A stretch of DNA of 64,000 nucleotides from an uncultured bacterium (GCA_937899715.1 CALCNX010000089.1:9213-73212), one strand, 5' to 3'. Positions 15,122-57,902 are shown, counted from the first letter of the stretch. The notes: a model not told the origin generated them from the sequence alone. Program-made: numbers and translations.

Positions 15122-15231
15122 GGCAAAGAATTCTGCAACTCTTTTCGGTTTATCTGTAACGTTGGAAGCAGCATCACATGGTATTTTTGTAGTGTAAGTT
15201 TTTTCATACACTATCATCTGGAGAAATAATC

Positions 15232-17759: not shown

Positions 17760-17830
17760 GAGTGCGAACGGAAGTTCGCCCAATCAACCAAAAGACAAAT
17801 TTTATTCTGCGAACTTCTTGTTCGCACTCC
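17759..17830. repeat. Copper-island palindromic element, copy B (GGAGTGCGAACGGAAGTTCGC … GCGAACTTCTTGTTCGCACTCC).
   Basis: It begins at the last base of the copA stop codon and ends 14 nt before the cupredoxin ATG. The outer GGAGT/ACTCC arms enclose two GCGAAC-N4/5-GTTCGC sub-hairpins. Confidence 0.7.
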
Positions 17831-17844
17831 AATTCTCTATAATT

Positions 17845-18222
17845 ATGGACACAGCACAAATTCTCGTAACGCTTGCTGGCACTGGACTCGTGGTGTTTGT
17901 GGTGTGGTATTTCTTTTTCGGCAAACGCGAAACAAAGGCTGCAATGCTCACAGCAAGCGGCGTTCAAGAAATCTCTGTTCTAGTCAAAGGCAGCTACACG
18001 CCTGAGATTATCGAAGTCGTCAAAAACAAACCCGTGCGTCTCAAATTCTACCGCGACGAAACCTCAAGTTGCTCGGAAGAGCTGGTTTTCGGCGAGTTCA
18101 ATCTCCGACGCGAGCTACCTGCTTTTGAAACGACGGTGATAGACATTACACCCACGAAAATAGGCACATTCGAGTTTACGTGTGGGATGAATATGCTCCG
18201 TGGCAAACTTGTAGTCAGATAA
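17845..18222 (+). CDS. Membrane-anchored cupredoxin-like (EfeO-N/Cup-type) small copper-binding protein.
   Basis: N-terminal transmembrane helix, then a beta-sandwich with C-terminal EFTCGMNMLRGKLVV. ATG at 17845; the track start at 17818 is a TTG inside the upstream repeat element. Confidence 0.5.
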   Translation: MDTAQILVTLAGTGLVVFVVWYFFFGKRETKAAMLTASGVQEISVLVKGSYTPEIIEVVKNKPVRLKFYRDETSSCSEELVFGEFNLRRELPAFETTVIDITPTKIGTFEFTCGMNMLRGKLVVR

Positions 18223-18229
18223 CAAACAC

Positions 18230-18293
18230 GGAGTGCGGACGGAAGTTCCGCAAAAAAAATAGAACTTAGTATGCGAACTTCCGTTCGCTCTCC
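18230..18293. repeat. Copper-island palindromic element, copy C (GGAGTGCGGACGGAAGTTCCGC … GCGAACTTCCGTTCGCTCTCC).
   Basis: It starts 8 nt after the cupredoxin stop and ends 13 nt before the multicopper-oxidase ATG. Same architecture as copy B. Confidence 0.7.
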
Positions 18294-18306
18294 ATTAGGA
18301 ATAACC

Positions 18307-19836: not shown

Positions 19837-19903
19837 GAGTGCGGAATGTACACCGCTTCTTCAAGTCAAACTAAAATTTTATGCAGAATAAATTCTGCAC
19901 TCC
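19836..19903. repeat. Copper-island palindromic element, copy D (GGAGTGCGGAAT …44 nt… ATTCTGCACTCC).
   Basis: It starts at the last base of the multicopper-oxidase stop and ends 18 nt before the cusA ATG. The terminal inverted repeat matches 11 of 12. Confidence 0.7.
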
Positions 19904-19921
19904 AATAAGATTCCTACCGCC

Positions 19922-22900: not shown

Positions 22901-23347
22901 ATTTACGCATTAGGCTATAATTTTTCGATTGCTGTGTGGGTAGGATTTATCGCGCTCTACGGCGTGGCGGTGGAAACAGGTGTGGTGATGGTGGTTTATC
23001 TGCACGAGGCATTGGACAAACGCTTGCTGGCTGTACAGCGCGGTGAGCGTGGTGCGCTCACGAACACCGATATTTACAAGGCAGCAGTAGAAGGCTCCGT
23101 ATTGCGCTTGCGCCCCAAACTGATGACGGTGCTGACGGCAATGATTGGGCTTGTACCCGTGATGTGGGCGACAGGAACAGGTGCGGACGTAATGAAGCCG
23201 CTCACTGCCCCGATGATTGGTGGTCTGCTTACGTCTGCTGTTCACGTGCTGGTCGTAACGCCGGTACTGTTTGTGATGATGAAAGAGCGGGCTTTGAAAC
23301 GTGGAACACTCGAAGTCTCGAAAATGGCAGGATGGATGGGGCATTGA
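19922..23347 (+). CDS. cusA: Heavy-metal efflux RND transporter, CusA/CzcA (HME) family, with a ~90-aa Gly/Ser/Met-rich low-complexity insertion.
   Basis: 12-TM RND architecture and typical HME-RND segments (…AIPDLSENQVIV…, …GGIILAVGVIVDSSIVLVEN…). Insertion …GSSATGGMSSGSVAASGGMGGMNNSATPVKEASNNAGADAGSSSSLFSSGQSGGQTF… near residue 820. Confidence 0.9.
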   Translation: MIENIIEWSAKNRFIVLLAYCIIIGIGVFAVARLPVDAIPDLSENQVIVFTEWMGRSPEVVENQVTYPIVSNLQGLPQVKAVRASSMFGMSFVFVIFEDNTDLYFSRNRVLERLNVIQAKLPAGVTPTLGPDGTGVGHVFWYTLESKKPQSKSSQSNSSTSKDGKHFYDAGTLRAVQDWYVRYKLSAVEGVAEVASIGGFVRQYQVDIDPMKLRAYNVSVAEVVNALQRSNNEVGGKLLEISSAEYFVRGQGYIHSKEDIENTVVRTASNGVPLMIQNIATVQLGGDIRRGTMDRDGKGEAVGGIIVMRSGENARAVIERVKQKITEISPGLPEGVEIYASYDRSTLIEAAVGTLERALVEAAIVVSIIVGIFLLHWRSIIRIIIELPIAVLMSFILMYALGITSNIMSLGGIILAVGVIVDSSIVLVENSYRNIAHAIEQKGHLTPDEYKRIAIDSAKQVGRAIFFSDLIILVSFLPVFLLTGQEGKLFKPLAFTKSFALLSSAIVVVTLIPVLMTMLMRGNFKPEDANVLTRFFKCLYEPIIHWVLKWRKTTMAINILALLATIPMIMNTGSEFMPPLDEGSILYMPVTLPNASTPEVNRILQEQDRIIKTVPEVAHVLGKAGRAETATDNAPVSMIETIILLKPKEEWRAGLRKKDIIAELDKKLQIPGVRNGWTQPIINRINMLSTGVRTDIGFKIYGDNLDTLEHYAIKAEEILKTVPGAADVVADRAQNGYYLDISIKREAAARYGVKVADVQDIIETAIGGQNLSVILDGRMRFPLRMRFARDSRESIDELERLIVPIPARGSVEASFGVGSSATGGMSSGSVAASGGMGGMNNSATPVKEASNNAGADAGSSSSLFSSGQSGGQTFVPLFYLADIRVVNGPSMINSEHGSLRAVVFMNARGRDMGGVVEDAQRTIAEKLKLPTGYSVEWSGQYEHKIRADRTIKIIMPVVFLIIFVLLYFTLKDYVEAGVVMLSVPFALIGGMYMIYALGYNFSIAVWVGFIALYGVAVETGVVMVVYLHEALDKRLLAVQRGERGALTNTDIYKAAVEGSVLRLRPKLMTVLTAMIGLVPVMWATGTGADVMKPLTAPMIGGLLTSAVHVLVVTPVLFVMMKERALKRGTLEVSKMAGWMGH

Positions 23348-23395
23348 TTTTTTTGAATTGACTCTATTTCACCAAAATCTACTGTACAAAAATGT

Positions 23396-24721
23396 ATGCG
23401 ACTAATAATCATTGCTCTTTTACCAACGCTTCTTTGTGGAGTTTCACTCCCTGCGCAGCCGCTTGATTCCTTGCTTGCCGAAGCTACACGAAACAACGCA
23501 CAGCTTCGCGCTTACGGTTTCGCTGTGCAAGCCGCCGAACATCGCATAGATGCTGCTGGCGCACTGCCACCTCCGCAAGCAGGTGTATCGGTGGAGCAAG
23601 TGCCGGTCGGCAATTTTAACATTGTGAACAGCGCACTATCCAACAACTTCTACGCTTCGCAAATGTTCATGCTGGGCGGAAAACTTGACGCAATGCAAGA
23701 CATGGAGCGGGCGCGAGTAAAAAACGAACACGAGCGCACTCAAGAATTTGCAGCTAAACTTCGCGCCGAAATTACGACCGCCTACACGATGCTTTGGCGC
23801 ATTGACCGCCAGCGCGAGGTGTACGCCAGCACTGCCACCCTTCTTTCGCGCTCCATCGAAGTCGCATCGGCACAAGTGCAAGCCGCACGACTTCCCTACA
23901 CAGAAGTAATGCGCTTGGAAGCAGAGAAATCCCTTGCGCTTCTGAAACACACAACGCTTGGTAACGAACGTAAATCTGCGATTGCTATGCTGAATGCGCT
24001 ACTGGGGCGTACAAATACGGCTTCGGTGAATATTACGCCTATTCTCGCAGAACGACGATTTATCGAAGAACAAGTTCGTATCAATCTTAAACGACTTGTC
24101 GTCTCCAATCCCACGCTACGACGTATGACAAGCATGATTGCCATGACTGAAGCGGAACGGATTTCGAGCGAAAAAGAGTCAATTCCTGACGTGATGCTAC
24201 AAGGGATGATTATGCGAATGCCTCAAGGAATGGCGCTTACGGCGAATTCACCTATTTTCACTGGTGCGCTTGAATCACCATTTGCCTACGTTGTTCGTGC
24301 GCCGAATGCCCCACCTGACTTTATGTATAGCCTCATGGCACAAATTACGTTGCCCTTTGCACCATGGTCGTCGGCAAAATATACCGCCAAAACACAAGAA
24401 CTCGCAGCCATAGCCACCTCGCAAACACTGGAGCGCGAGAATATGGAGCGGATGCTCTCGGCACAAGTAGAAGAACAAGTACAAAAAATGCAGACTGCCG
24501 CAGAAACCGCAGACATCCTCGAAAAAACGGTCATTCCGCTTTACGAACGCACGTTGGATGCCCAATTAACAATGCTCTCCACCGCACAAGCAAGCATAAA
24601 CACACTGCTCGACACTGAGCGAATGCTATTGATGAAGCGCGATGACCTGCTCATGGCACGTGAGCAATACCACCTTGCGCTCGCTCAGCTAGAATACTTG
24701 CTTGGCGAGCCGTTGCGATGA
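23396..24721 (+). CDS. cusC: Outer-membrane efflux factor (TolC/CusC-like).
   Basis: Signal peptide and two-repeat OEP architecture with coiled-coil periplasmic segments. Located between cusA and cusB. Confidence 0.75.
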   Translation: MRLIIIALLPTLLCGVSLPAQPLDSLLAEATRNNAQLRAYGFAVQAAEHRIDAAGALPPPQAGVSVEQVPVGNFNIVNSALSNNFYASQMFMLGGKLDAMQDMERARVKNEHERTQEFAAKLRAEITTAYTMLWRIDRQREVYASTATLLSRSIEVASAQVQAARLPYTEVMRLEAEKSLALLKHTTLGNERKSAIAMLNALLGRTNTASVNITPILAERRFIEEQVRINLKRLVVSNPTLRRMTSMIAMTEAERISSEKESIPDVMLQGMIMRMPQGMALTANSPIFTGALESPFAYVVRAPNAPPDFMYSLMAQITLPFAPWSSAKYTAKTQELAAIATSQTLERENMERMLSAQVEEQVQKMQTAAETADILEKTVIPLYERTLDAQLTMLSTAQASINTLLDTERMLLMKRDDLLMAREQYHLALAQLEYLLGEPLR

Positions 24722-24730
24722 TTTTTTATC

Positions 24731-24794
24731 GGATTGCGGAATTTTAATTCCGCCTTTTTCAACAATTTCAATCGCGGAATAAATTCCGCACTTC
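24731..24794. repeat. Copper-island palindromic element, copy E (GGATTGCGGAATTTTAATTCCGC … GCGGAATAAATTCCGCACTTC).
   Basis: Two perfect GCGGAAT-N2/4-ATTCCGC palindromes flanked by degenerate GGAtTG / CACTtC arms. It lies between the cusC stop (24721) and the cusB ATG (24805). Confidence 0.6.
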
Positions 24795-24804
24795 ATGCAC
24801 GATT

Positions 24805-26100
24805 ATGAACTACCTCATTCTTGCCATTCTTTTTATCCTGACGGCGTGTTCGCAAAAACAGAACGCGCAAAATGGACACGCAGGACACAATGATTCTACC
24901 GCTCTGCAAGCCGCAAAGCCCGTCAAATATATCTGTCCGATGCACCCCAAAGTAACGTCCGACAAAGAAGGTATTTGTCCAATTTGTCAGATGGACTTAG
25001 TGCCGGAAAACAGCCCTGAAGCGAAGGAATACGCGGAGGACGAGCATTCTCACGAGCATAGTTCTCACGAGAACAGTTCTCATACGGAACATACGTTGGG
25101 CGAGCTTGCCATAACAGGGCAAAGCCGTGTACTGGCGGATGTGCAAACAGCAACCGTTCAGAGCGAGTCTATTCATCGCACCGTCAATGTTGTTGGCACA
25201 TTGGACTTTGCCGAACAGAATCGCCGCAGTATCACTGCCCGCGTGAGTGGACGGATTGAAAAATTATACGTGAACCAGTCTGGGATGACCATTCGTAAGG
25301 GGCAGGCACTTTTTGATGTGTACAGCCCCGAACTCCTACAAGCACAAAACGAGTATATCATTGCCTTCAAAAACCAGCAATTAGCAAGCCTGAGCGGTGG
25401 CACAAGCACGGCAATTCTCAGAAAATTGAAAGAGCGTTTGATGATTTGGGGGCTGACCGAAGAGCAAGTTCAGGCACTAGAGCGCTCGCAGGATGCACCA
25501 CTCACAACCACTCTTCATGCGCCTTTCGGCGGGACGGTGATTGAGAAAAAAGTTGTGGAAGGAACGTTTGTGAGCATCGGCGCACCACTCTTTGAAGTTG
25601 CCGACCTTTCTACGCTGTGGAATATAGCAGGGATTTATGAAACAGACGTGGCGGCGGTGAAGATTGGTCAACAGGTTGCTCTGAGGACGCAAACCTATCC
25701 GGGCGAGACCTTCAAAGGGCGCATTGCCTTTATCTATCCCGTCGTGAACGCGGAATCGCGCACGGTGAAAGTCCGTATTGAAACGCCCAACCCTCACAAA
25801 AGGCTACGTCCGGCGATGTACACCGAAACAACGTTTATGCTCAATCAAGGCAAAGGCTTGACTGTTCCCAATGATGCGGTGTTGGTAACAGGCAAACAAT
25901 CTATTGTTTGGGTGCAGGCACAGGTCGAAGCAAACAAATTCGAGGCGCGGCGCGTAACGCTGGGAGCAAAATTTGACGGTAAAATACAAATTCTTTCCGG
26001 TGTATCGGCAGGAGAAAAAGTGGTGGCACGTGGTGGATTTTTGCTGGATTCGGAGCGGCAGTTGCGCGGTGGAACTGGCAGCGAAGGACATCAGCATTAA
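24805..26100 (+). CDS. cusB: RND efflux membrane-fusion (periplasmic adaptor) protein CusB-like, with an N-terminal YxCPMHP heavy-metal-binding domain and a His-rich stretch.
   Basis: Lipobox LILAILFILTACSQ; HMBD-type motif YICPMHPKVTSDKEGICPICQMDL; His-rich EDEHSHEHSSHENSSHTEH; HlyD/biotin-lipoyl-like barrel segments. Confidence 0.85.
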   Translation: MNYLILAILFILTACSQKQNAQNGHAGHNDSTALQAAKPVKYICPMHPKVTSDKEGICPICQMDLVPENSPEAKEYAEDEHSHEHSSHENSSHTEHTLGELAITGQSRVLADVQTATVQSESIHRTVNVVGTLDFAEQNRRSITARVSGRIEKLYVNQSGMTIRKGQALFDVYSPELLQAQNEYIIAFKNQQLASLSGGTSTAILRKLKERLMIWGLTEEQVQALERSQDAPLTTTLHAPFGGTVIEKKVVEGTFVSIGAPLFEVADLSTLWNIAGIYETDVAAVKIGQQVALRTQTYPGETFKGRIAFIYPVVNAESRTVKVRIETPNPHKRLRPAMYTETTFMLNQGKGLTVPNDAVLVTGKQSIVWVQAQVEANKFEARRVTLGAKFDGKIQILSGVSAGEKVVARGGFLLDSERQLRGGTGSEGHQH

Positions 26101-39350: not shown

Positions 39351-39740
39351 ATGCTCACCGCGCTTCGTCATACCGATTCTCTTGCTACGCGCTCTTTCGC
39401 GCTGGCGCTTGCTGTGCTCTTTTGCACAGTGCGCATGGCTGCTGCATGGCACACCCACGAAGCATTTCACCACCACAACACGCCCGGCAGCAAGGCTGCC
39501 TCAGAAGCCTACTCCATTGCAGGTTTCGACCATAATACCTCGCCGACTAACCAGACAGCGGAGAATGACGATTGCCCGTTATGCCATGTATTGTCGCAGG
39601 GCATAGCGGAAATTGCGCTTGTAGCATTTGCTTTTGCACTTGCCCTCATGCTTGTTTTGCTTCTTGCGTCGGTATCATTTTCACCTGCTCGCCTCTCCAT
39701 TTCTTGCCTTTCCGACCGCGCTCCTCCTCGTTTCGCATAA
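39351..39740 (+). CDS. Hypothetical small His/Cys-containing membrane protein upstream of a TonB-dependent receptor.
   Basis: N-terminal hydrophobic segment, a His cluster HTHEAFHHHN, a DDCPLCH motif, and a C-terminal TM. No family recognised. Confidence 0.4.
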   Translation: MLTALRHTDSLATRSFALALAVLFCTVRMAAAWHTHEAFHHHNTPGSKAASEAYSIAGFDHNTSPTNQTAENDDCPLCHVLSQGIAEIALVAFAFALALMLVLLLASVSFSPARLSISCLSDRAPPRFA

Positions 39741-39804
39741 GCTCCTCTGCATAGCTTGCACCGCCTTTCTTTGTACTGCCTTTTCTTGAATACACCTTGA
39801 TTCT

Positions 39805-42276
39805 ATGACCATTTCACGACATAGCTTTGTGCTGTGGGCGTGTATGATGCTTACGCAATGCTGCTTCATACCAGCGTTGTACGGGCAAATACTCGTCGGC
39901 ACGGTGCTGGATAATCGCACCAGTAAGCCACTTTCCAGCGTACGCCTCTACATCCTCGAAAGTAAACGTGGTATGCTTTCACGTGCGGATGGGTCATTTA
40001 CGCTTCCTATCGGCGAACGCGGCACGTACACGCTTCGCGCAACACTTCTTGGCTATACGGCACTGGAAGAGCGTATTGTGGCTACTTCTCCAGATACCAT
40101 TCGCATTCGTATCCGTTTGCAGCAAGCCGTAGTGCGCCTTGCTGCTGCACGAGTCGTTACCGACCGTATCAATTCGGACAATTTGCCAACACAAAACATG
40201 ACCACTATTACCACACAAGATTTGGAGCGCTCTCGCGGGCAAACCTTTGGCGAGGCACTGCAAAATGTAGCGGGGGTAACACTTATGCAGACAGGAGCTT
40301 CGATTTCAAAGCCTGTTATTCGAGGGTTGCACAGCCAGCGTATCGTGGTGGTCAACGCAGGAGTAGCACAAGAAGGACAGCAGTGGGGCGCAGAGCACGC
40401 GCCGGAGATTGACCCCTTCGCTCCCTCCAAGATAGAAGTGGTGCGTGGTGCGGCGGGTGTGGAATATGGTGCGGGCGCTATCGGTGGCGTGATTCGGGTT
40501 CTCCCGCGAACGCTACCTCGCGGCACGTGGTTTGGTGGGGAAGCACAAACAGCTCTTTTTACTAATAACTCACAAGGCGTATTATCACTGGCATTAGAAG
40601 GCGGAAAGGCGGTAATTGGTGATAGTAACACGCTGCTGAATGAACTTGGTAAGGGGTTTGGCTGGCGCACGCAAGGCAGCGCAAGGCGGGCAGGCGATTC
40701 GCGTGCACCGTCGTATGTGATTGGTAATACAGGTTTTCAGGAAATAAATGGTTCCGTAGCATTTGGTTACACCGGGGAGCGCTTTGGAATTGAAGCCTAT
40801 TACTCACTTTTTACCACCGAACTCGGTATTTTTAGCGGTGCGCATATCGGAAGTTTACCTGATTTGTTGCGGGCGATGGAGAATGGTCGCCCCTTAGTGG
40901 ATTATGAATGGACGTACGCGATTGATGCGCCAAAGCAGCAAATTACGCATGATTTGTGGTCGGTAAATGCCCATTATGCTGCGGACTGTGGGCGCTTCGA
41001 GCTGCAATACGGCTGGCAGCAAAATAATCGTGCCGAATTCGATAGCCACAATGCTCGTATTCGCGGGGATTCGGGCGTGCTCATGCAATCGCTCATGCGC
41101 CCCGCCATGAACTTGCAATTAACAACGTATTCGCTTGATGCAAAATTTCGCCACAAGCCACTGAACATTGCACCCGAAGCCGTACTGACGGGCATTGTGG
41201 GCGGGAGCGGTGTAGCGCAATGGAACGTGCAGAGCGGTAGGGCGTTTCTGATTCCTAGTTTTCAAGCGCAGTCCGGGGGAGCATATTTGATTGAAACGTT
41301 GGCAATGCCTGATTTTATCGCCAATGCAGGATTCCGCTATGATGCGCGGCACGTGAACGTCATCGGCTCGGAATTTCGGGATATTCCCGACACAACGCAG
41401 ACGTTTTCCGGTTTTTCTGCGGCACTTGGCGTGGTGATGAATTTTGGGTTGGAAATAAACACAAACGACAGCACACAATTTATATCACTGCAAACTAGCC
41501 AAAGACCATCCTTCAAGCCGTTTTCCCTTGCACTCAATCTTGCTTCGGCATGGCGAGCGCCGCTGGTGAACGAGCAATTTTCCGAAGGCGTTCATCACGG
41601 CACGGCACAATATGAAATCGGTAATCCGAACCTGAAGCCGGAACGCAGTTACAGCGCAGATGCGACGCTGGCATTGCGAACCGAAAAAGCTCACTTTGAA
41701 CTCAGCGGCTACGTGAACACGATTGATAATTTTATCTATCTTCGTCCTGACGCTGCAAATCCGACGGTTACGATTCGCGGAACATTTCCGACCTTTCACT
41801 ACGCCCAGACATTTGCACTCTTGCGGGGTGTGGATGCAAGTGCCGATGCTCTTTTGAGCGATAATGTGCGCTTGGGCGGAACGCTCTCACTTGTGCGTGG
41901 TGATAATGTTGCTGACTCCGAGCCGCTTATTTTCATGCCTGCCGACCGACTTCGTTCGTTTATTCGCTACGAAGCTGCGTCATTGCTTGGCATGGCGGAT
42001 ATCTTTGCAGAAATCTCGTCAACACTTGTGCGGACACAAGACCGCTTCCCTGCGAATGTGGATTATGCTGCGCCACCGCCCGGCTATGTACTGTTTGATT
42101 GCGCAGTGGGAGGGCACGTGGAAACGTTCGGCACAAGACTTTCGTGGAATGTATCAGTGCGGAATATTGCAAACACGGCGTATCGAGACTATCTCAGCCG
42201 CTACCGTTATTTCACCGATGATCCGGGGCGGAACGTGGTTGTGCGAGTATCGGTGCCGTTTGGAGATGGGCGGTGA
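39805..42276 (+). CDS. TonB-dependent outer-membrane receptor with an N-terminal carboxypeptidase-regulatory-like domain.
   Basis: Signal peptide; CarbopepD_reg-like segment ILVGTVLDNRTSKPLSSVRLYI; plug domain; C-terminal beta-barrel with an aromatic terminus. Confidence 0.85.
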   Translation: MTISRHSFVLWACMMLTQCCFIPALYGQILVGTVLDNRTSKPLSSVRLYILESKRGMLSRADGSFTLPIGERGTYTLRATLLGYTALEERIVATSPDTIRIRIRLQQAVVRLAAARVVTDRINSDNLPTQNMTTITTQDLERSRGQTFGEALQNVAGVTLMQTGASISKPVIRGLHSQRIVVVNAGVAQEGQQWGAEHAPEIDPFAPSKIEVVRGAAGVEYGAGAIGGVIRVLPRTLPRGTWFGGEAQTALFTNNSQGVLSLALEGGKAVIGDSNTLLNELGKGFGWRTQGSARRAGDSRAPSYVIGNTGFQEINGSVAFGYTGERFGIEAYYSLFTTELGIFSGAHIGSLPDLLRAMENGRPLVDYEWTYAIDAPKQQITHDLWSVNAHYAADCGRFELQYGWQQNNRAEFDSHNARIRGDSGVLMQSLMRPAMNLQLTTYSLDAKFRHKPLNIAPEAVLTGIVGGSGVAQWNVQSGRAFLIPSFQAQSGGAYLIETLAMPDFIANAGFRYDARHVNVIGSEFRDIPDTTQTFSGFSAALGVVMNFGLEINTNDSTQFISLQTSQRPSFKPFSLALNLASAWRAPLVNEQFSEGVHHGTAQYEIGNPNLKPERSYSADATLALRTEKAHFELSGYVNTIDNFIYLRPDAANPTVTIRGTFPTFHYAQTFALLRGVDASADALLSDNVRLGGTLSLVRGDNVADSEPLIFMPADRLRSFIRYEAASLLGMADIFAEISSTLVRTQDRFPANVDYAAPPPGYVLFDCAVGGHVETFGTRLSWNVSVRNIANTAYRDYLSRYRYFTDDPGRNVVVRVSVPFGDGR

Positions 42277-42286
42277 GAGACATCAT

Positions 42287-42529
42287 TTACCGAGCAAGTT
42301 CCAAAGGCTCGTGCACAAGCAGCATTAAATCTTGCGTTGAGATAGATTCGATGGCAAATGCTTTGCCGTTCAGGTCAGCAAATTCAACCAAGGCAAACTC
42401 TCCAATGTGATCATCAACGACTGTTCCGCCACAGCCACGCGGCAGTACAATCTGTTTACCGCTTGCAAAGTGAGTTGTAGTGAGCTCTTTGAGCAAAACA
42501 ACAGCAGAATGTTCTTGAAGTATTGGCAT
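42287..42529 (-). CDS. DUF4926-like small protein.
   Basis: 80 aa. The pattern VVLLKEL…GKQIVLPRGCGGTVVDDHIGEFALVEFADLNGKAFAIESISTQDL matches what I recall of DUF4926 (SH3-like, E[VF]EF.D..G). AT-rich local composition. Confidence 0.5.
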   Translation of the reverse strand: MPILQEHSAVVLLKELTTTHFASGKQIVLPRGCGGTVVDDHIGEFALVEFADLNGKAFAIESISTQDLMLLVHEPLELAR

Positions 42530-42543
42530 AAATTACATCCTTG

Positions 42544-42882
42544 TTAATCAATGTAAGCAGTTGATAGATGAGGTACTTGAGTTTTATGATTTACACACCA
42601 CCCCGTGCGAATACGACAAGTGCTGACATCAGTGGTCAGGTTGAAAACAATATTGTAAATATCGCAATAGGGTGTGGTCTTAACAAAAAACGCTTGATTG
42701 GTTTGTGAAGCAGAAAAGATTGCATCCAGTAGAATTTCGCTATTCGTCTGAGAAATACCAAGCAACCGTTGAAATAAAAGAGCTTTATGCTTGCCATATT
42801 CATGCTCTGTATTCAAACAGTATTGCTCAACTTTTTCAAGAATTTGCTTGCGGTCAATCATGGAAGCATTTGGCAGATACAT
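42544..42882 (-). CDS. Conserved hypothetical small protein, upstream partner of the DUF4926-like gene.
   Basis: 112 aa, 14 nt upstream of the DUF4926-like gene on the same strand. No recognisable domain; I am unsure whether it is DUF6883-like. Confidence 0.4.
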   Translation of the reverse strand: MYLPNASMIDRKQILEKVEQYCLNTEHEYGKHKALLFQRLLGISQTNSEILLDAIFSASQTNQAFFVKTTPYCDIYNIVFNLTTDVSTCRIRTGWCVNHKTQVPHLSTAYID

Positions 42883-42981
42883 AGCAATAATAGGATTTTA
42901 ACAGACAACCTTTACCAAAACTACAATTTTTCTGTCATTAGTTCATAGTTTTTGCTTTTTCACCCTTTTCCCCAAAACATT

Positions 42982-43560
42982 ATGAAGACCTTTTTTTCTC
43001 GCACTAATGCCATTAAAACGGCATGGTTACTTCTGTTCGTAACACTAGCATTGACAAATGCTTGCCGCCCTATCTCCAATCCTGCACAAACAGACCTTGA
43101 GGAAGTCTTGCCGAACGTGATAACGCTGACCTTGAGCAGTCCGCAGGGCAATACCACTGCCGTTTGGCATGGCTCTACCAATGCAACGGGTTCAGCAGTG
43201 CATATCGACACACTCGTTCTTGCGGCAGGGCGCACGTATGCCGGTGCGATTAGCGCCGTGAATGCAACCAAGTCGCCCAGCGTTGATTTGACTGCCGAGT
43301 ACAAAAAACTGGCGGATGAGCATCAGTTTTTTTATATCGTTGCGGGAGATGCGAAAAACCGCGTGAGTATTACTGTTACCGATAAAGACGGAAATAATTT
43401 GCCCGTCGGCTTGGAGTTTACCCTTGCCGCAAGTGCAGGCGCATCAGTGCGCGGGACGCTCAACGTCGTGCTTTCGCATTATGACGGGGTGAAGAAAAAT
43501 GGTACTAGTATGAGTTCGGAAAGCGATATTGATATTACTTTTCCGGTAGTTATTCGGTAG
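42982..43560 (+). CDS. Hypothetical lipoprotein with a beta-rich secreted domain.
   Basis: Signal/lipobox MKTFFSRTNAIKTAWLLLFVTLALTNAC. ATG at 42982; the track start is TTG. Confidence 0.5.
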   Translation: MKTFFSRTNAIKTAWLLLFVTLALTNACRPISNPAQTDLEEVLPNVITLTLSSPQGNTTAVWHGSTNATGSAVHIDTLVLAAGRTYAGAISAVNATKSPSVDLTAEYKKLADEHQFFYIVAGDAKNRVSITVTDKDGNNLPVGLEFTLAASAGASVRGTLNVVLSHYDGVKKNGTSMSSESDIDITFPVVIR

Positions 43561-43684
43561 TGCTTGAAGTGAACGTGTGAAAAAAATGCGTCATTGTCTT
43601 TTTCTCTGCAACTTTTCCGCGACCTTGTGCATCTTCCTTTTGTAGTTCCAATTTTGCCCCACGACCGACAACGTCTGCAAGCGC

Positions 43685-44254
43685 ATGACCGAAACGCTTC
43701 CACGCATATCCGAAGAGACAAGGCACCGACCAATGCTTGAGCAGCCCAATCATACCGACCACGCTGAACGCCAAGCACGATTCTGTGCGCTTGTGGAGCC
43801 GCATATTGAGGCGGTTGGGCGCTTTGTTCATGCGCTCACGCGCAACCGCGAGGAAGCACGTGATATTACGGGCGATGTTCTCCTTATTGCCTTTGAACGT
43901 CTGGACGACCTCAAAAGCGAGCAAGCGTCCGCATCGTGGCTCTTTTCGATTGCCCGCAATACGTTCTATCAGCGTAAACGGCGCAGCAAATTCTGGGGCT
44001 TTTTTGATGAAAAAGCCGCGCACGAAAACCCTACGGAAGCTCCGCAGCCGGACGTTTCTGCCGATGTTGCCCTTTTGCACAAAGCTCTTTCCCGACTGCC
44101 CGAAGCACAGCGCGAAGCCGTCACTCTCTTTGAAATAGCAGGTCTTTCGCTGGAGGAAATTCTCGCCGTGCAAGGCGGTACGCTCTCCGGCGTGAAATCG
44201 CGCGTTACACGCGGGCGCGAAGCACTGAAGAAAATGATGACGGATAAAGTATGA
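43685..44254 (+). CDS. ECF (sigma-70 group IV) RNA polymerase sigma factor.
   Basis: Region 2 (…FVHALTRNREEARDITGDVLL…FSIARN…) and a region 4 helix-turn-helix (…LPEAQREAVTLFEIAGLSLEEILAVQGGTLSGVKSRVTRGREAL…). Confidence 0.8.
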   Translation: MTETLPRISEETRHRPMLEQPNHTDHAERQARFCALVEPHIEAVGRFVHALTRNREEARDITGDVLLIAFERLDDLKSEQASASWLFSIARNTFYQRKRRSKFWGFFDEKAAHENPTEAPQPDVSADVALLHKALSRLPEAQREAVTLFEIAGLSLEEILAVQGGTLSGVKSRVTRGREALKKMMTDKV

Positions 44255-44292
44255 AGCCTCACCAAGACCAATGACCAAGCAACTAACGACCA

Positions 44293-46311
44293 ATGACCAA
44301 ATTAGACGAATACTTTGACCGCGCCCGCCGCGAAACACCGCCTCTCCACAAGGATGAAGTGAGCAACATCCTTCGAGAGAAATTATCCGAACGCCGCGAC
44401 CGTGAGACCGCTCACACTCGTGGGAATGGCGTTTGGTGGCGGAGCATCGGGCGTGTTTTTCTCACACTTCCCCCAAAAGGTTGGATTATGATTTCCGCAT
44501 TGCTCACAAGCGCAATTCTTGCCACAGCATTTTTCTGGCAAATAACGCCGCAAAGCGCATACAATGGTGCTTCTGCATCACAAACATCAACATTTCACGC
44601 AGCAGCACCGCAAACTGTCGCGCAAATAAACGTTTCACAAAAAAAACTCGCCCTAAAAGCCCAAACAAAAACGAATTACGCGGCAAAAATGCAAGCGCCA
44701 ACGAAGCCCGAAGGACTCACGACCACAAATGCTCAAACACTCAAAGACAGCCTTCCTGCGCCGTATGATTTTGTACCCGTGGACGAAGAGCCTTTCATAG
44801 ATATTCAGACATTAATGCAAAAAGTTGTTTATCCCGAAGTCGCCAAAAAGCTGGGTTTAGAGGGTAAAGTGAATGTGCGTATTCTTGTGCTGCCCGATGG
44901 CAGCGTCTCACGTCGTTCATTTGTAGAGTATTCCGATGTACATCTATTTGACTCATCGGCACTAAATAGTGTTTACGCTACACATTGGGAACCCGCCAAA
45001 CGAGCAGGAAAGACTGTTTCATGTTGGGTAAGTGTACCGATCTCTTACCGCTTGAAGGAACGCATGGGCAAAAATGTAATTATGAAAGCGCAAATACTGA
45101 CATTGACAGCGGAAGAATTAAAGAAGATAGGTGTGGAGCAGGATGCGAAGGGTATCGTTACCACGCTAGGCTGGAACAAATCACGCGAAAAATTGTATCG
45201 TATGCAGACAAGTATCCATTCCGATATTACGCCCAAACTAATGAGTGATAGCGTTTTTGCTGAATATTTACATACCCTTCGCAAAGAAGGCAAATATGCT
45301 ACGGCAGCACAATGGGAAACTGCTCAACGTGAAGCTGGGAAGCGGTCGCTACGGGACTTAATACGTGATAGCGTCATGAATTCTAACGAATCCGGCATTG
45401 TCAACATTGTTTCCACGAAGCAGTCCGAGAAAGTGGTTGATTACATGGAATTACGCGCAACTGCCCGCCAATTCTCGCTTCCACGCCTTGTAACTGATGG
45501 TCATAACTATCGCTATTTTGTGGATATGTCAGACCTTCCACGATTACAAAAGAGTCGTGAAATACAAAAGGAAATGACTGAATTTTACCGCCAATTGAAA
45601 CTTGCCAAGATAGACACGGCACAAGCACTTGATTCCGCAAGAAAATTTCATAGCAGATATAACTCTGCAACGTATAAGGCAATGATAGCAGCAGCAGATA
45701 GCAACGAGAAAGCTAGGTTAATAAAACAATTCAATGAAGAGTATCGTCAAAATCTTGTGCAGGAAAAGCAAGAAGAACTGCAATTCGAGCAAGAAAAATC
45801 CGACGTTAGCAAGCTCATCGGCATTCGCATCCCCAGCAACCAAGCCCGCGCCGAAGGTGATGAATACTTGCTTTGGTACGACCCCACGCCGGAATTTATT
45901 GCCCTTCTGCCGGAGCGCTACCGCACAGGATTGGAACGCGAAGTAGCCGCCGCAAAGAAATACGCAACCAAATGCGAAATCCCCACCGAAGAAGAGCGGA
46001 AGGCTATTCCGGGCTATTTCGATTCGTGGCGCTCCTGTGACGGTGTGCTGAAAATTGCAAGTATTTTCCCCAATCCTGCCGACGTGAAAGCAACCGTGCG
46101 CTTTACGCTCGCCGAAGCCCGCAGCATTACGATTACCGTGCATGGTCTGAATGGTGACCGCCTTGCTATCTTAGAGCCAACGCCCGTGCTACCTGCTGGC
46201 GAACACGAACTGCCCTTGGACTTCACGGGGCGCAACGTGGGCGTGTATTTACTGGCGCTCTCGACCGATAAGAACGAGACTGCAATTAAGCGCGTGATGA
46301 TTTCGCGGTAA
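44293..46311 (+). CDS. Chimeric membrane protein: cytoplasmic anti-sigma-like N-terminus, single TM, TonB C-terminal-like domain, long charged linker, and a C-terminal T9SS (Por) sorting-like domain.
   Basis: About 55 cytoplasmic residues, then a TM (GWIMISALLTSAILATAFFW). TonB_C-like region …IDIQTLMQKVVYPEVAKKLGLEGKVNVRILVLPDGSVSRRSF…SALNSVYATHWEPAKRAGKTVSCWVSVPISYRL. C-terminus SIFPNPADVKATVRFTLAEARSITITVHGLNGDRLAIL…GVYLLALSTDKNETAIKRVMI resembles TIGR04183. Located 38 nt after the ECF sigma gene. Confidence 0.65.
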   Translation: MTKLDEYFDRARRETPPLHKDEVSNILREKLSERRDRETAHTRGNGVWWRSIGRVFLTLPPKGWIMISALLTSAILATAFFWQITPQSAYNGASASQTSTFHAAAPQTVAQINVSQKKLALKAQTKTNYAAKMQAPTKPEGLTTTNAQTLKDSLPAPYDFVPVDEEPFIDIQTLMQKVVYPEVAKKLGLEGKVNVRILVLPDGSVSRRSFVEYSDVHLFDSSALNSVYATHWEPAKRAGKTVSCWVSVPISYRLKERMGKNVIMKAQILTLTAEELKKIGVEQDAKGIVTTLGWNKSREKLYRMQTSIHSDITPKLMSDSVFAEYLHTLRKEGKYATAAQWETAQREAGKRSLRDLIRDSVMNSNESGIVNIVSTKQSEKVVDYMELRATARQFSLPRLVTDGHNYRYFVDMSDLPRLQKSREIQKEMTEFYRQLKLAKIDTAQALDSARKFHSRYNSATYKAMIAAADSNEKARLIKQFNEEYRQNLVQEKQEELQFEQEKSDVSKLIGIRIPSNQARAEGDEYLLWYDPTPEFIALLPERYRTGLEREVAAAKKYATKCEIPTEEERKAIPGYFDSWRSCDGVLKIASIFPNPADVKATVRFTLAEARSITITVHGLNGDRLAILEPTPVLPAGEHELPLDFTGRNVGVYLLALSTDKNETAIKRVMISR

Positions 46312-46333: not shown

Positions 46334-47707
46334 TCAACCAATCACCGGACTATTTCGCTTGGAATAGTCCGGTATTGTTTCGGTCTGTATCTCATCGGGT
46401 CCGTGCTGTATTTTTTTAGTGAGCAAGTACATAAAAAGCACAAAGAGCAGCGCATAGACGAGCGTAAAAAGAATAAGCGAGAACAAGATTTGTTCAGCCT
46501 TGACGGACTTGGAAAGAGCATCACTTGTGCGGAGCAAGCCATAGACCACCCACGGCTGCCGCCCCATTTCTGCCGCAAACCACCCGCATTGATTCGCAAG
46601 TTGCGGCACAACCACCGCAAAGGCGTACGTCAGCATGAGCCATGAATACTGAAAGAGTTTCCCCCGCCACCACAGAAAAACGGAAAAAAGCGTCAGCCCA
46701 ATCATAAACATTCCACTCGCTACCATGAGATGATAAAACTGGAAAACAGCGTTGATTTGCAACGGGCGGTCGTTTTTAGGGAAGGAGTTGAGACCTCTGA
46801 CAGGCGTGGTGAAGTCTTGATGCAGAAGAAATGTCAGCCCCTTCGGAATATACAAGCCCATTATTTGTTCGGTGCTTTGGTTCACATAGCCCATAAGGTA
46901 CATATCGGCAACCGCCAAACTGTCGTAGTGTCCTTCAAAAGCCGCCAGCTTTGCGGGCTGGTTCACCGCCACACCGTCTGCGGAGCGATGTCCCGTGAAA
47001 AGCTGCGTCAAACCTGCTACCGTCGCTATCGCGAGCGCAATTTTGAATGCTTTTTGGGATAATTCCACGTGCCGCCGCTTCAGAATGTAGTACGCATGAA
47101 CACTCAGCACCAAAAATGAACCCGCTAAAAAAGCTCCCACAATCACGTGCGAAAGCCTGTCCACCGACGACGGATTAAAGACCATTGCCCAAAAGTCCGT
47201 TATTTCCGCCCGTGCTTTCATGCCCTCGCCCACGATATGAAATCCCGCCGGCGTTTGCTGCCATGAGTTCGCAACCACAATCCAAATTGCCGAGAACATC
47301 GAACCAAGTGCTACCATCACCGTCGAAAAAAAATGTACTTTCGGGCTAACGCGATTCCAACCAAAGAGCAAAACTCCCAGAAAACCTGATTCCAACGCAA
47401 ACGCAAAAATACCTTCCGCCGCCAACGCTGAACCGAAAATATCTCCCACATAGCGCGAATACGTCGCCCAGTTCGTACCGAATTCAAATTCCATCACAAT
47501 CCCCGTTGCTACGCCGATGCCGAAGATGAGCGCAAAAATTTTTATCCAAAAGCGCGTCATCTGTTCGTATATTTTGTTGCCCGTTCGCAAATACAAGCCC
47601 TCCATTGCCACCAAGACCACGCCCAGCCCAATGCTGAGAGGCGGGTAAATGTAATGAAAACTGATGGTAAAAGCGAATTGCACGCGGGCGAGAAGCTCTG
47701 CATCCAT
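46334..47707 (-). CDS. cydA: Cytochrome bd ubiquinol oxidase subunit I.
   Basis: Starts [29 protein letters not shown]; the Q-loop region and nine-TM pattern are present. ATG at 47707; the ORF-track start at 47983 extends 92 codons upstream. Confidence 0.85.
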
Positions 47708-54463: not shown

Positions 54464-57400
54464 TTACCGTGCAATCATCATTCGCACACTGGCGCGAATG
54501 TTCTCACCCACAATCCGCACCAGATATACACCGACGGGAAGGTTATGTGCATCCAGTTGAAGCGTTGTGTTGGCAGCTGTTACATCGGTCTCAAAGACTT
54601 CTTCGCCACGCATATTCACAACAGATAAACGCGCTGCACCGCTAAAGGACGGAATTTGGATAAATGCCGCATCCGAAGCCGGATTTGGCGCTACGCCAAG
54701 CGTCTGCACGAGCGATACGCCACCAGAAACGCTTGTCAGTACAGCGCTCACAGGCTTTTGCAAGATAATAGATTTCTCAATGGCGGCAGGCTGCTCGGCG
54801 AGAACCTTCGCCGTGGCGCTTTCATAGCCCGGCTTATCCACTATGAGTGTGTACAAGCCATGCTCTACCATGCCCGCATCAAAACGCCCTTGCTTATCGG
54901 TAACAGTTTGGGAGACAACACTGCCTTCTTTATCCGTCAGATAGACTGATGCACCCAAAACGCTTGCCCCGTTGAAACCTGCTTCGCTGCTCACGGAGCC
55001 GGAAACTGTTGCCACAACTGCCGTTGCCGTTGGGCGGCGCGGTGCGAGAGCAATAGTAATGCGCTCCGTGCTTGTTGCGCCGACGTTCAATCTCGCTGCA
55101 TCGCGCCAGCGTGTGGTGGCGGTTGTTCCTGCAACATAATAACCGGAAGCAAAGTCTCGTTCGTTGTTTGGGAATGCCTGTAAGACATATTCACCGGGCG
55201 TAAGATTACGCACAGTAAACGTGCCTGTGCTGTCCACATTTTCCGTGCGGACTTCCAGCGAAGCATATTGAGGCGTATTGGCGGTGGTAGCGGTCATAAA
55301 CACCGTGATGCGCCCCGGTATTGCAACACCGCTTGTACTCTGTACTTTCCCTGTAATGGCATTATTGAACGTTGGGCGCTCTTGCAGTGCAAAATTGATT
55401 CCCGTCAAATCGCTCGTAAGCCTGAAACGACGGGCTTCGGCGAGATTAAGCGTATTATCGTAATACATCGGGAGCAATTGCGGCGGTCGCACGGTTGCGG
55501 TTGTGGGTCGCGGCTCATCGGGCAGCGCACGAATCGTGAAAATATAGCGATTGTCGAGCTGCGTGAGGCGGTAATTACCTTGCGCGTCAGTGCGAACCGT
55601 GCGGCGAATAATACCGCCATTGACCAAAGTCGGGTCGGCATCACCGACTGCCTCAACCATTCCCGCCACCGGAGCACCATCGGCGCGGCGTGTTACCCGT
55701 CCGCTGATGGCAAAAAACTGCGCAGCTGGACGATGTTGGACAACGACTGAGCGCGTAAGCGTATCGCCGCAGCGTACAGTAATTTGCACTGCACGCTCAG
55801 GCGTGGAAACGGTCGCAATCGTACTTGCGGCTGTACCTGCGAACCATACATCATTGAAATCAGAACCAGAGAAGCTCAAAATATATGCTCCTGCGCCGAC
55901 GGGCATAGAGTACACGCCATTGCGAATGGTGGCTGTATAGTACAATGCCGAGCCGCCAATCGATGCAGCAGTAACATTGGCTACAAGTGCTCGCGCAGTA
56001 CCACTTACGACCACTGCTCCATCAGTATAACGCGCTGTCCCTTGCAGAACGCCACAAAGTGCTGCACGGGCATTTCCTGAAAAGCGCTGTCGGGCTTCTG
56101 CGGGGCGAGGTGTGCCGTTTGGCAAACGCGCAATAATTTCAAACGTGAACTGACCCGCAATCGTCGGAGTCCAGCGAACATCACCCGTGAGCGAATCAAT
56201 CTGAGTACCCGTAGGTGCTGTGCCAAGCGAATACGTAATCGTTGCCGTTGTAGGGCGGGAAGCCTCTGCGCGGGCGCGGTAAACAAACTCGCGTCCAACA
56301 TCCACAAAGACTGAACCCGGTTCTGTGGTAAAGCGCAGGGTAATTGGAGCAAGGGCAACATTCACCTGATAGGTCTGCGTGGTGCTGAGTGTCGGATTGT
56401 CCTTGAGTGCTGCACGGATGCTTATCGTGAGTAATCCATTGGTCGCTACCGTCCAGCGCACTGTTCCACGCGTGGCATCAATTGTCATACCTTGCGGAGG
56501 ATTGATAAGACTAAAGGTGAAGGCAGATGCCGCAACTGTGGTAATAGGATTCGGAACACTATCTGGGCGGGTAACAATAGCCACAAGCGAATTCAAATTG
56601 CCGTAAGCAACGACCGGCTGATAAACATAATTCTGTCCTACAGTGACGCTACGAGGCGGTTGCGAAGTAAAGAGCATTTGCGGCATTGAGACTCGTATGC
56701 GGAAATCTTGTGTAACCGTTTGCGTGGTGGAACCGCCGACCACACTTGCCCGTAGCAGAATGCGAACGGTTGCCGTTGTGGGAAGGCTCGTAGGCTGCCA
56801 GCGTACAATGCCGGAATTAGCATCAACCGTCATACCGCTTGGCGCATCCACGAGCGTATAGCTCATCGGGACACGTTGCGTGATGGGCACAATAGTCACC
56901 TCGCCCGGGCGGGAACCAGTTTGGATATTTGCCCCTTGCAAGGCAGCAATAGCGTTATAGATGTACCCCTGCCCCACAAATGCTTCGGTTGGAGGATTTG
57001 TAACAAAAATAGGACGGGGTTCTGTAACGCGGATTTCGACATTTTGCGTAGCGCTTGCTGTGGGAACAGTTGTGGAAGCCGCGCGAATACTGAATTGAAC
57101 TATTCCCGAAGCACTTGGAGTCCAACGCACCGTTCCACGTGTCGCATCAATCGTCATTCCTTGCGGAGCACCGATGAGGCTGTATTGAATTGCCCCTGTT
57201 TGTGTACGCGGCGGTGTTGCCAAAACGGGGTCAACACCGTAATATGCGAATGCCTGATAGGTGTACGGAGCGCCGACCGATGCCGTGCGAGAGGCTTCTC
57301 CCACAAAACGAACTGTGGGCTGCGCAGCACTTTCGGGAATAACGGTAATGTTAAATGTTTGTGTTACATTCTGATTTGCGTTGGTAGCCATAGCAGCACG

Positions 57401-57712
57401 AAGCGAAACTCGCACGGTCGCGGGGCTTGGAGCCGTCGAAGCCGTTGTTGTCCAGAGTACAAGTCCACTGACAGAATCAAGCGTCATGCCGCGTGGTGCG
57501 CTCGTGAGCCTATATCGAATAGCTGCCATGCTGTCGCGCCCGAATGCGCGAGCTTGATAGCGATATTCACGGTTGGCGATTGCAATCACGGGAGGATTAG
57601 AAACAAACCGAATAATAGGTAGTACGGGATTTGTGGGCGTATTCTGCGCTTGGGTGCTCCCGTAAGCACACACGCCGAGAAAAAACAGAAGGAGAGTACG
57701 AAAGGTTCGCAT
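54464..57712 (-). CDS. Large secreted/surface protein with repeated putative-Ig (He_PIG-like) domains, carboxypeptidase-regulatory-like domains and a C-terminal T9SS sorting domain.
   Basis: Signal peptide MRTFRTLLLFFLGVCAYGSTQAQ. At least four repeats of the form PxGMT[IL]D..[ST]G.V[RL]WTP. Central beta-sandwich CarbopepD_reg-like segments. C-terminus …AARLSVVNMRGEEVFETDV…PVGVYLVRIVGENIRASVRMMIAR matches Por_Secre_tail. Confidence 0.75.
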   Translation of the reverse strand: MRTFRTLLLFFLGVCAYGSTQAQNTPTNPVLPIIRFVSNPPVIAIANREYRYQARAFGRDSMAAIRYRLTSAPRGMTLDSVSGLVLWTTTASTAPSPATVRVSLRAAMATNANQNVTQTFNITVIPESAAQPTVRFVGEASRTASVGAPYTYQAFAYYGVDPVLATPPRTQTGAIQYSLIGAPQGMTIDATRGTVRWTPSASGIVQFSIRAASTTVPTASATQNVEIRVTEPRPIFVTNPPTEAFVGQGYIYNAIAALQGANIQTGSRPGEVTIVPITQRVPMSYTLVDAPSGMTVDANSGIVRWQPTSLPTTATVRILLRASVVGGSTTQTVTQDFRIRVSMPQMLFTSQPPRSVTVGQNYVYQPVVAYGNLNSLVAIVTRPDSVPNPITTVAASAFTFSLINPPQGMTIDATRGTVRWTVATNGLLTISIRAALKDNPTLSTTQTYQVNVALAPITLRFTTEPGSVFVDVGREFVYRARAEASRPTTATITYSLGTAPTGTQIDSLTGDVRWTPTIAGQFTFEIIARLPNGTPRPAEARQRFSGNARAALCGVLQGTARYTDGAVVVSGTARALVANVTAASIGGSALYYTATIRNGVYSMPVGAGAYILSFSGSDFNDVWFAGTAASTIATVSTPERAVQITVRCGDTLTRSVVVQHRPAAQFFAISGRVTRRADGAPVAGMVEAVGDADPTLVNGGIIRRTVRTDAQGNYRLTQLDNRYIFTIRALPDEPRPTTATVRPPQLLPMYYDNTLNLAEARRFRLTSDLTGINFALQERPTFNNAITGKVQSTSGVAIPGRITVFMTATTANTPQYASLEVRTENVDSTGTFTVRNLTPGEYVLQAFPNNERDFASGYYVAGTTATTRWRDAARLNVGATSTERITIALAPRRPTATAVVATVSGSVSSEAGFNGASVLGASVYLTDKEGSVVSQTVTDKQGRFDAGMVEHGLYTLIVDKPGYESATAKVLAEQPAAIEKSIILQKPVSAVLTSVSGGVSLVQTLGVAPNPASDAAFIQIPSFSGAARLSVVNMRGEEVFETDVTAANTTLQLDAHNLPVGVYLVRIVGENIRASVRMMIAR

Positions 57713-57902
57713 AGCGAAATTCCTTGTAATTGAAATGATAAAAGCCCTGCTATTTGCTGAGAGATGAATATAAAGGCGTTTCTTGCGAGACGCTTTAGGC
57801 AAGAACAAGAAAACGACACAAGAGTTACAATATATTCAATTTGTGAGCCAAAATTTCTCCGAGAGCAAGGCTTTTTCAATCACTATCATACCATATTTCG
57901 CA

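Follow-up and report, generated by a model that had tools for sequence, protein, structure and literature searches.

How might an anti-sigma-like protein held in the inner membrane make use of a tag for export across the outer membrane? Pairs of extracytoplasmic function (ECF) sigma and anti-sigma factors are a major mode of bacterial signalling, and the key question for them is how each anti-sigma factor senses the envelope. The locus considered here lies in 64,000 nt of DNA from an uncultured bacterium (GCA_937899715.1 CALCNX010000089.1:9213-73212; this whole stretch is called the window, and coordinates are counted from its first letter), in which an ECF sigma factor gene is followed by a gene for a 672-aa protein that ends in a type-A C-terminal sorting domain (CTD) of the T9SS (type IX secretion system). 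We assign a probability of roughly 0.5 to the reading that the two genes are a self-regulated sigma/anti-sigma operon whose periplasmic CTD gives it a handle on the T9SS, for docking or for signalling. The features on which the argument turns are listed below, with open reading frame abbreviated as ORF, transmembrane as TM, hidden Markov model as HMM, and residues (aa) numbered along the 672-aa protein.

43607..43637, plus strand: conserved ECF-type promoter-like element, TGCAACTTTT-N9-TGTGCATCTTCC, 31 nt, upstream of the sigma gene; putative promoter
43685..44254, plus strand: gene for the ECF sigma factor; 189 aa as the longest ORF, 173 aa from the probable start M17 at 43733
44293..44478, plus strand: predicted N-terminal cytoplasmic segment (aa 1-62), candidate sigma-binding domain, with the motif L-D-E-Y-F-x-x-A-R-R...P-L-x-K-D-E-V-S-x-I-L
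44479..44541, plus strand: single TM helix (aa 63-83), from a hydropathy scan and alignment, with an invariant KGWIM just before it
44542..44742, plus strand: variable linker (aa 84-150), rich in P, Q, T, S and A, from identity and composition
44743..45063, plus strand: TonB C-terminal-type domain (TonB_C; aa 151-257), apparently a clade-specific insertion, from HMMs and matches to solved domains
45064..45798, plus strand: family core (aa 258-502), with the motif 'LTLTxEELKKIGV', the motif 'PRLVTDGHNYRYF' (aa 391-415) and variable charged helices (aa 331-390 and 416-502)
45799..46062, plus strand: pre-CTD module (aa 503-590), a beta-hairpin plus helices with 'LWYxPTPEFxxLPERYR...C...WRSCxG' and a probable disulfide
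46063..46311, plus strand: T9SS type-A CTD (aa 591-672) and stop codon, from HMM and fold
46344..46373, plus strand: terminator-like hairpin with a 13-bp stem, closing the two-gene operon

Linkage of the 672-aa protein to its sigma factor

The pairing with a sigma factor is strongly supported by the company that the gene keeps. An ECF sigma gene was found upstream on the same strand at 21 of 21 distinct loci and adjoined its partner at 20 of them, with gaps from -20 to +67 nt and many 4-nt overlaps; at L017, one 252-aa ORF intervenes. This linkage extends to members that are only ~30% identical, and the other flanking genes differ between loci. Around the distant orthologues at L001, L003 and L005, the flanking genes are wholly unlike those of the window, and the sigma gene again stands immediately upstream, with a 4-nt overlap or a 7-nt gap. 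A scan of species-representative genomes produced 15 further loci, in metagenome-assembled genomes (MAGs) labelled Kapaibacterium, Ignavibacteria, 'Bacteroidota bacterium' and Chitinophaga, and ORF calling and phmmer then placed a sigma gene upstream at each distinct one. In five divergent members without TonB_C the sigma gene was adjacent as well (gaps of -11, +2 and three of -4 nt). Two ordinary CTD proteins encoded at the loci surveyed had no sigma neighbour. Three genomes carried two sigma-partner pairs each. Scored against the window sigma, orthologous sigmas reached 260-380 bits, those of the paralogous pairs 110-117 bits and those of other divergent members 79-144 bits; by these comparisons, the sigmas were duplicated along with their partners. 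Conserved linkage, topology and evolution are all what is expected of a cognate sigma/anti-sigma pair, and we consider it quite probable that the two genes encode one. The initial annotation of the locus had suggested such a pairing, and relatives support it strongly, both through the gene order and through the N-terminal segments, which align across the family with an hhalign probability of 97%.

Both ORFs lie where that annotation had placed them, with 38 nt between the sigma stop codon and the start of the 672-aa ORF (44293-46311), and the upstream gene is an ECF sigma factor as proposed. It matched Sigma70_r2 (PF04542, 35.4 bits) and Sigma70_r4_2 (PF08281, 40.4 bits) in a Pfam scan and the ECF superfamily model TIGR02937 in an NCBIfam scan (60.8 bits against a cutoff of 42.9); small (173-189 aa) and made of regions 2 and 4 alone, it belongs with the ECF (group 4) sigma-70 factors. 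It fits no named NCBIfam equivalog or subfamily, all of which scored far under their cutoffs (the top one, SigZ, at 88 bits against 169). The start at M17 (43733) is favoured both by the orthologue alignment and by the gene as called independently for an identical ENA contig. In alignment, the partner sigmas of family members form one coherent family with the common motif QGG[ST]LSGVKSR.

The DNA around the two genes has the marks of a single transcription unit. No terminator-like site was found between the sigma gene and the 672-aa gene, and the hairpin follows the second gene alone. Upstream of the sigma gene, both ends of the 31-nt promoter-like element are invariant at 8 of 8 orthologous loci, within neighbouring DNA that cannot be aligned, and the element is the sole copy in the window even when up to 3 mismatches are allowed. 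Metagenomes gave four exact matches. Three precede sigma operons of orthologues; the other sits at the end of its contig, with nothing readable downstream. Paralogue groups carry related promoter-like elements with a different downstream half, which is how mutually insulated, autoregulated ECF sigmas would look. Between 43300 and 46600, sites resembling the sigma-70 consensus promoter numbered 0 on both strands, against 3.2 expected from shuffled sequences, which fits an organism or operon with other promoter types. As a separate observation, the first 60 codons of the 672-aa gene (44293-44472) have fourfold-degenerate-site identities of 0.67-0.91 between distant orthologues (a small sample of 14-22 sites), compared with mostly 0.3-0.5 in the gene's remaining structured regions; coupling of its translation to the sigma gene, or a constraint on the RNA, could be behind this.

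For the partner protein, we predict an N-in single-pass inner-membrane topology from its sequence. There are 14 lysines and arginines in aa 1-62, none in the ~25 residues after the helix and 6 over the whole linker (aa 84-150), so the positive-inside rule places the N-terminus in the cytoplasm. The segment before the single helix is somewhat longer than the 'about 55' residues first reported, at ~62; the helix count and the predicted orientation stand. Numerous residues of this segment are invariant across the alignment of 19 orthologues. No cleavable Sec signal peptide is evident from hydropathy and alignment, the sole hydrophobic helix being preceded by this conserved, charged stretch of ~62 residues. 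Past the helix, the linker has a mean identity of 0.45, a P+Q+T+S+A fraction of 0.61 and a predicted local distance difference test (pLDDT) score below 30.

Single-pass anti-sigma factors of ECF sigmas are familiar from RseA/sigmaE and RsiW/sigmaW, and short two-helix sigma-binding domains from the CnrY type. The 672-aa protein resembles these in that its gene directly follows an ECF sigma gene, to which its translation is coupled, and in its N-in orientation, short helical cytoplasmic domain and extracytoplasmic, sensory part; autoregulation from an ECF-type promoter is a further likely point of resemblance. It differs in matching no anti-sigma model, in a periplasmic part that belongs to a new family and ends in a sorting domain, and in that its binding to the sigma factor is a prediction.

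A family defined by a pre-CTD module and a sorting domain

What had been described as a chimeric protein proved to be a member of a family. Its 26 homologues, all in Kapabacteria or Ignavibacteria MAGs, have the whole architecture down to 54% identity. Among the best 150 matches of a HMMER search run exhaustively over 1.84 billion cluster representatives, about half covered only aa ~505-672, always at the C-terminal end of the matched protein (250-800 aa). We fetched 190 proteins and 33 loci for a census, in which all members came from MAGs; an HMM of the module alone found it in 110 of the 190 proteins, and in all 110 the CTD followed directly, at the extreme C-terminus (median of 84 residues from module end to C-terminus). 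In members without TonB_C, the CTD was the sole match to Pfam and NCBIfam.

The wider family can be recognized by its N-terminal motif (L-[DE]-x-[YL]-F-x-x-A-R-x...P-x-x-S-x-D-E), by a single TM helix at aa ~50-80, by the core motifs 'G[VI]xx[IL]ELxxxELxxLG[IV]' and 'sPRx[VI]TDxxG', and by the module 'NKLIPv...LWYxPTPExxxxLPxRYR...C...WRSCsGa', which leads directly into a type-A CTD with the family signature 'LHDLxG' and the ending 'GEQAVQRxxV'. When the clade with TonB_C was aligned by hhalign with members lacking it, module and CTD matched at a probability of 100% (E 1e-44), the N-terminal segment at 97% (E 5e-11) and, more weakly, the first core motif at 78% (E 2e-5), 'LTLTxEELKKIGV' aligning with 'GVxxIELxxxELxxLGI'. 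Seven of the 110 members (P0076, P0080, P0086, P0162 and P0187-P0189) have, besides the terminal module, 1-2 further internal copies of its first half, 'vWYxPTPxLxxxLPxRY', which makes this half-module a repeatable unit. The initial annotation had filled the space between TonB_C and CTD with 'about 300 residues of K/E/R-rich linker'; this description holds for aa 331-390 and 416-502, which are variable and charged, and fails for aa 391-415 and 503-590, which are among the best-conserved parts of the protein (identity of 0.85 among orthologues for the 'PRLVTDGHNYRYF' motif at aa 391-415).

Members were found solely in T9SS-bearing lineages of the Fibrobacteres-Chlorobi-Bacteroidetes (FCB) group. 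Protein-database searches with the module alignment and with the Chitinophaga-MAG member gave very few matches and no cultured host, and a full-text literature search gave no report of a CTD-bearing anti-sigma factor; at their sources, members are called only 'hypothetical', 'TonB family protein' or, by the NCBI pipeline, 'T9SS type A sorting domain-containing protein'. By these sequence criteria this is a previously undescribed family, built of N-motif, TM helix, core, pre-CTD module and CTD and found in MAGs of Kapabacteria, Ignavibacteria and Bacteroidota.

The C-terminal end had been read as a T9SS sorting domain, and profile and fold both bear this out. The window protein narrowly passes the cutoff of TIGR04183, and 8 of 10 family members score 34-42 bits on that model. 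Structure prediction for the full-length protein was poor (AlphaFold pLDDT 57), with TonB_C alone reliable (pLDDT 80-90), and the last 170 residues, from a diverse alignment of 52 sequences, gave a confident model (pLDDT 89, predicted template modelling score 0.76). In it, a beta-hairpin and helices are followed by a seven-strand sandwich, for which the nearest matches of low root-mean-square deviation were solved T9SS CTDs, one of them bound in a translocon complex; a Foldseek search of the model against the PDB gave generic Ig-like matches only. As modelled, the domain is a genuine type-A T9SS CTD with an Ig-like beta-sandwich. The module in front of it had no similar solved structure in the fold searches and no Pfam or NCBIfam model. 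At least 2 cysteines are kept within a stretch of ~35 residues of the module in 52 of 52 sequences, and 11 of those that lack the 'WRSC' cysteine have one three positions upstream instead; a pair that is kept and yet relocated in some lineages points to a conserved disulfide, and thus to an extracytoplasmic location.

No other part of the protein is as constrained as this end. Mean identity to the window protein over the 19 orthologues was 0.92 in the CTD and 0.90 in the module (aa 503-590), compared with 0.69 for TonB_C and 0.45-0.55 for the linkers, and module and CTD remained 80-91% identical between orthologues that are 54-60% identical overall. At the fourfold-degenerate sites of module and CTD, identity was 0.33-0.47 (0.68 in one pair), diverged like the rest of the gene. 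This rules out both a recent exchange or recombination of DNA and an embedded DNA or RNA element as the cause of the near-invariant C-terminus; a conserved protein with saturated fourfold-degenerate sites indicates purifying selection at the protein level. A tag used for sorting alone would have no need of such constraint; together with the obligate joining of module and CTD, the constraint points to a specific conserved partner.

TonB_C, the neighbouring receptor and the T9SS context

The TonB_C domain had been called correctly (PF03544, 63.4 bits, E 2.7e-17, aa 178-254; TIGR01352, 44.3 bits); its YP...EGxV motif is present, and a profile search matched solved TonB C-terminal domains. The domain is internal, with 415 residues C-terminal to it, and its motif occurs in 23 of the 110 family members. 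Since the N-terminal segment, first core motif, module and CTD are homologous to those of members without TonB_C, sequence comparison makes the domain an insertion between membrane anchor and core in one clade. The TM helix, WIMISALLTSAILATAFFW, contains no histidine, so that the SxxxH motif of TonB is absent, and neither ExbB nor ExbD was seen among the annotated neighbours in a window scan that was not exhaustive.

A TonB-dependent receptor (39805-42276) does end 1.4 kb upstream, as first noted; it is missing from the orthologue neighbourhoods at L001 and L003 and is not a conserved neighbour. At L005, a Plug-domain gene lies ~6 kb upstream of the orthologue. In Pfam, the receptor of the window has CarboxypepD_reg, Plug and barrel domains only and is without the STN signalling domain. 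Cell-surface signalling centred on a TonB-dependent receptor was rejected on account of this non-conserved neighbourhood and the missing STN domain. A merger of FecR-like and TonB-like functions around the receptor, also put forward by the initial annotation, runs into the same two points, the confinement of TonB_C to 23 of 110 members and the lack of any FecR match. What the locus shares with FecI-FecR-FecA is its inventory, one neighbourhood combining a TonB-dependent receptor with an ECF sigma and a single-pass regulator; here there is no FecR, DUF4880 or DUF4974 domain and no STN domain, and the receptor linkage is not conserved. Like TonB energy transducers, the 672-aa protein carries its membrane anchor at the N-terminal end and combines a canonical TonB_C with an extended linker; it differs in that its TonB_C is internal and dispensable in most of the family, and in the lack of SxxxH.

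The surroundings of the receptor suggest another affiliation for it. It follows a DUF2946 protein with weak LpqS and CzcI copper-homeostasis matches, itself shows partial heme/ZnuD-type matches, and precedes a 202-aa protein with a lipoprotein-like N-terminus, so that 39351-43560 looks more like a unit for metal uptake than a part of the sigma system. In the close relatives L009 and L011, too, the sequence coding for the C-terminus of the 202-aa protein stands upstream of the sigma gene. Between receptor and 202-aa gene, two small adjoining ORFs on the minus strand (42287-42882), assigned to DUF4926 and DUF6883 on the identical ENA contig, may be a toxin-antitoxin-like pair. Elsewhere in the window, 13876-26100 is a copper/heavy-metal resistance cluster, in which an HMA-domain P-type ATPase is encoded at 15468-17759, a multicopper oxidase at 18271-19836 and, at 19922-26100, a CusA-like resistance-nodulation-division pump, an outer-membrane factor and a CusB-like fusion protein with a heavy-metal-binding domain.

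As to the T9SS itself, the window encodes an ordinary cargo protein on its minus strand (54464-57808), 1114 aa long with He_PIG and CarboxypepD_reg Ig-like domains and a Por_Secre_tail match of 43 bits; its presence shows canonical, CTD-directed secretion to be in use in this genome. In one orthologous lineage, the anti-sigma-like gene is followed ~0.6 kb downstream by sprA, the gene of the T9SS translocon (>2700 aa, SprA_N; 10715-18079 at L001 and 3111-10475 at L002), which lies on the opposite strand past a DivIC-like gene. An ordinary CTD cargo in the window and SprA beside the L001 orthologue show that the lineage has a T9SS. The 672-aa protein is like ordinary type-A cargo in its terminal TIGR04183/PF18962 domain and Ig-like sandwich; it is set apart by the conserved cytoplasmic segment and anchor, by a dedicated pre-CTD module that is always present, and by the unusually strong constraint on its CTD.

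Competing explanations and a possible signalling circuit

The closest precedent comes from Porphyromonas gingivalis, in which the CTD of PorA is both a secretion signal and a periplasmic ligand of PorY and drives the ECF sigma SigP (PMC7712824, PMC12152298). That CTD still functions when tethered to the inner membrane, and it signals independently of T9SS components (PMC12152298). Small and soluble, PorA has the normal signal peptide of a cargo protein, and it signals by way of a histidine kinase and a response regulator that are separate from it (PMC7712824, PMC12152298). The comparison with the 672-aa protein is one of CTD class: in P. gingivalis a type-A T9SS CTD acts as a periplasmic signalling element with an ECF sigma as output, and we propose the same here. 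In contrast to the PorA-PorY-PorX-SigP circuit, a conserved module joins the CTD of our family to a membrane protein whose gene lies beside the sigma gene, and no two-component proteins are involved.

What we infer of sigma binding, T9SS contact, signal direction and regulon can be put as follows. The cytoplasmic segment, ~60 residues with two helices, would sequester the sigma factor. Because the protein stays tethered to the inner membrane, its CTD cannot act just by letting it go; the CTD would bind the T9SS at a conserved face, periplasmic or outer-membrane, for example at PorV/SprA or on the PorM/N side. If that end were occupied, pulled or cleaved, the stability of the anti-sigma factor would change, the freed sigma would transcribe from the conserved TGCAAC...GTGCATCT promoter, and its activity would tell in what state type IX secretion is. 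Such a design would compress the P. gingivalis circuit from PorA-CTD through PorY and PorX to SigP into one protein, to which the inserted TonB_C of the window's clade would add a second possible contact, with the TonB boxes of outer-membrane receptors. A bolder form of the same idea, which we think unlikely to be right in full, treats the inner-membrane anti-sigma factor as a T9SS pseudo-substrate: module and CTD would be captured by the translocon or the shuttle machinery, maybe then be drawn in by the motor that the proton motive force drives, or be cut by the sortase PorU, and the anti-sigma factor would thereby be destroyed, letting the sigma read secretion capacity or cargo load throughout a family widespread in Kapabacteria, Ignavibacteria and Bacteroidota. 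In the clade of the window, TonB_C would then add input from ligand-loaded TonB-dependent receptors.

Several results weigh against our preferred reading. No zf-HC2, RskA or FecR model matches the protein in Pfam or NCBIfam at E <= 1, so the anti-sigma HMM support that the initial annotation had proposed to look for did not appear, and in the full-length model the N-terminal segment is of low confidence. The regulon hunt, over the window and the metagenome matches to the promoter-like element, gave no member besides the operon itself, and hence nothing connects the sigma factor to T9SS genes. The CTD of the window protein is marginal (PF18962 24.6 bits with a gathering threshold of 27; TIGR04183 23.6 bits with a cutoff of 23). 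No T9SS machinery gene lies within the window, and the adjacency of sprA, seen in one lineage only, may be coincidental.

Three other explanations have to be set beside this reading. The most serious, which we still consider unlikely, also makes the protein an anti-sigma factor and takes module and CTD as a T9SS-independent periplasmic sensor, an Ig-like binding domain for some other ligand or partner, or a purely structural element, whose likeness to sorting domains is a matter of ancestry. The evidence from sigma linkage and topology fits it equally; Ig-like sandwiches are generic binding modules, and the Foldseek matches in the PDB were generic; the CTD has its own family signature and is conserved far above the need of a sorting tag; and in P. 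gingivalis the CTD of PorA signals independently of T9SS components (PMC12152298). A domain freed from the secretion system in this way sits uneasily with the retention of every type-A CTD hallmark and of the extreme C-terminal position in 110 of 110 proteins, with scores of 34-42 bits on TIGR04183 in relatives and solved T9SS CTDs as the nearest structures of low deviation, and with the restriction of the family, as found, to T9SS-bearing FCB lineages.

The awkwardness of an inner-membrane anchor joined to a T9SS signal, raised by the initial annotation, is real, and it would vanish if the protein were ordinary T9SS cargo or a surface protein, with the N-terminal region and helix as an extended cleavable signal and the sigma factor merely controlling expression. 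The canonical type-A CTD, the NCBI naming of relatives as T9SS type A sorting proteins and the small-residue stretches after the TM helix of the window protein (for example G-A-S-A-S) would all agree with this; yet we hold it to be improbable, given that a conserved, basic, helical segment of 45-60 residues precedes the helix family-wide and is unneeded for export alone, that the orthologue alignment shows no conserved A-x-A site in the post-helix linker, its least conserved part, and that a sigma gene upstream at 21 of 21 loci, often overlapping the start of its partner and duplicated with it, is the classic sigma/anti-sigma arrangement. Least credible of all is a TonB paralogue, whether an energy transducer or a signalling anti-sigma factor that reads the TonB box of the receptor 1.4 kb upstream. 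The canonical TonB_C with its YP...EGxV motif, the TonB-like topology of N-in anchor and long linker, the receptor in the window and the Plug-domain gene at L005 speak for it, and are outweighed by the 87 of 110 members that lack TonB_C and are still sigma-linked, by the 415 residues after the domain and the missing SxxxH, and by a receptor without STN that is not a conserved neighbour and sits in a copper/metal context with DUF2946. The reading we prefer remains a sigma/anti-sigma operon with a CTD directed at the T9SS. The pair would work like an ECF sigma/anti-sigma module, stands outside the FecR, RskA and zf-HC2 families and is not a bona fide TonB.

For annotation, the family carries a warning, in that such proteins get counted as T9SS cargo or as TonB paralogues, and the operon-specific promoter element is an immediate handle for reporter assays. 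An anti-sigma-like family that ends in the sorting signal of a secretion system, joining an inner-membrane anchor to an outer-membrane export tag, is a paradox, for which the T9SS tag may here sense or signal rather than only export. This suggests that the dual role of the T9SS CTD seen in PorA is a broader principle and not an oddity of P. gingivalis, in this family hard-wired into a single protein.

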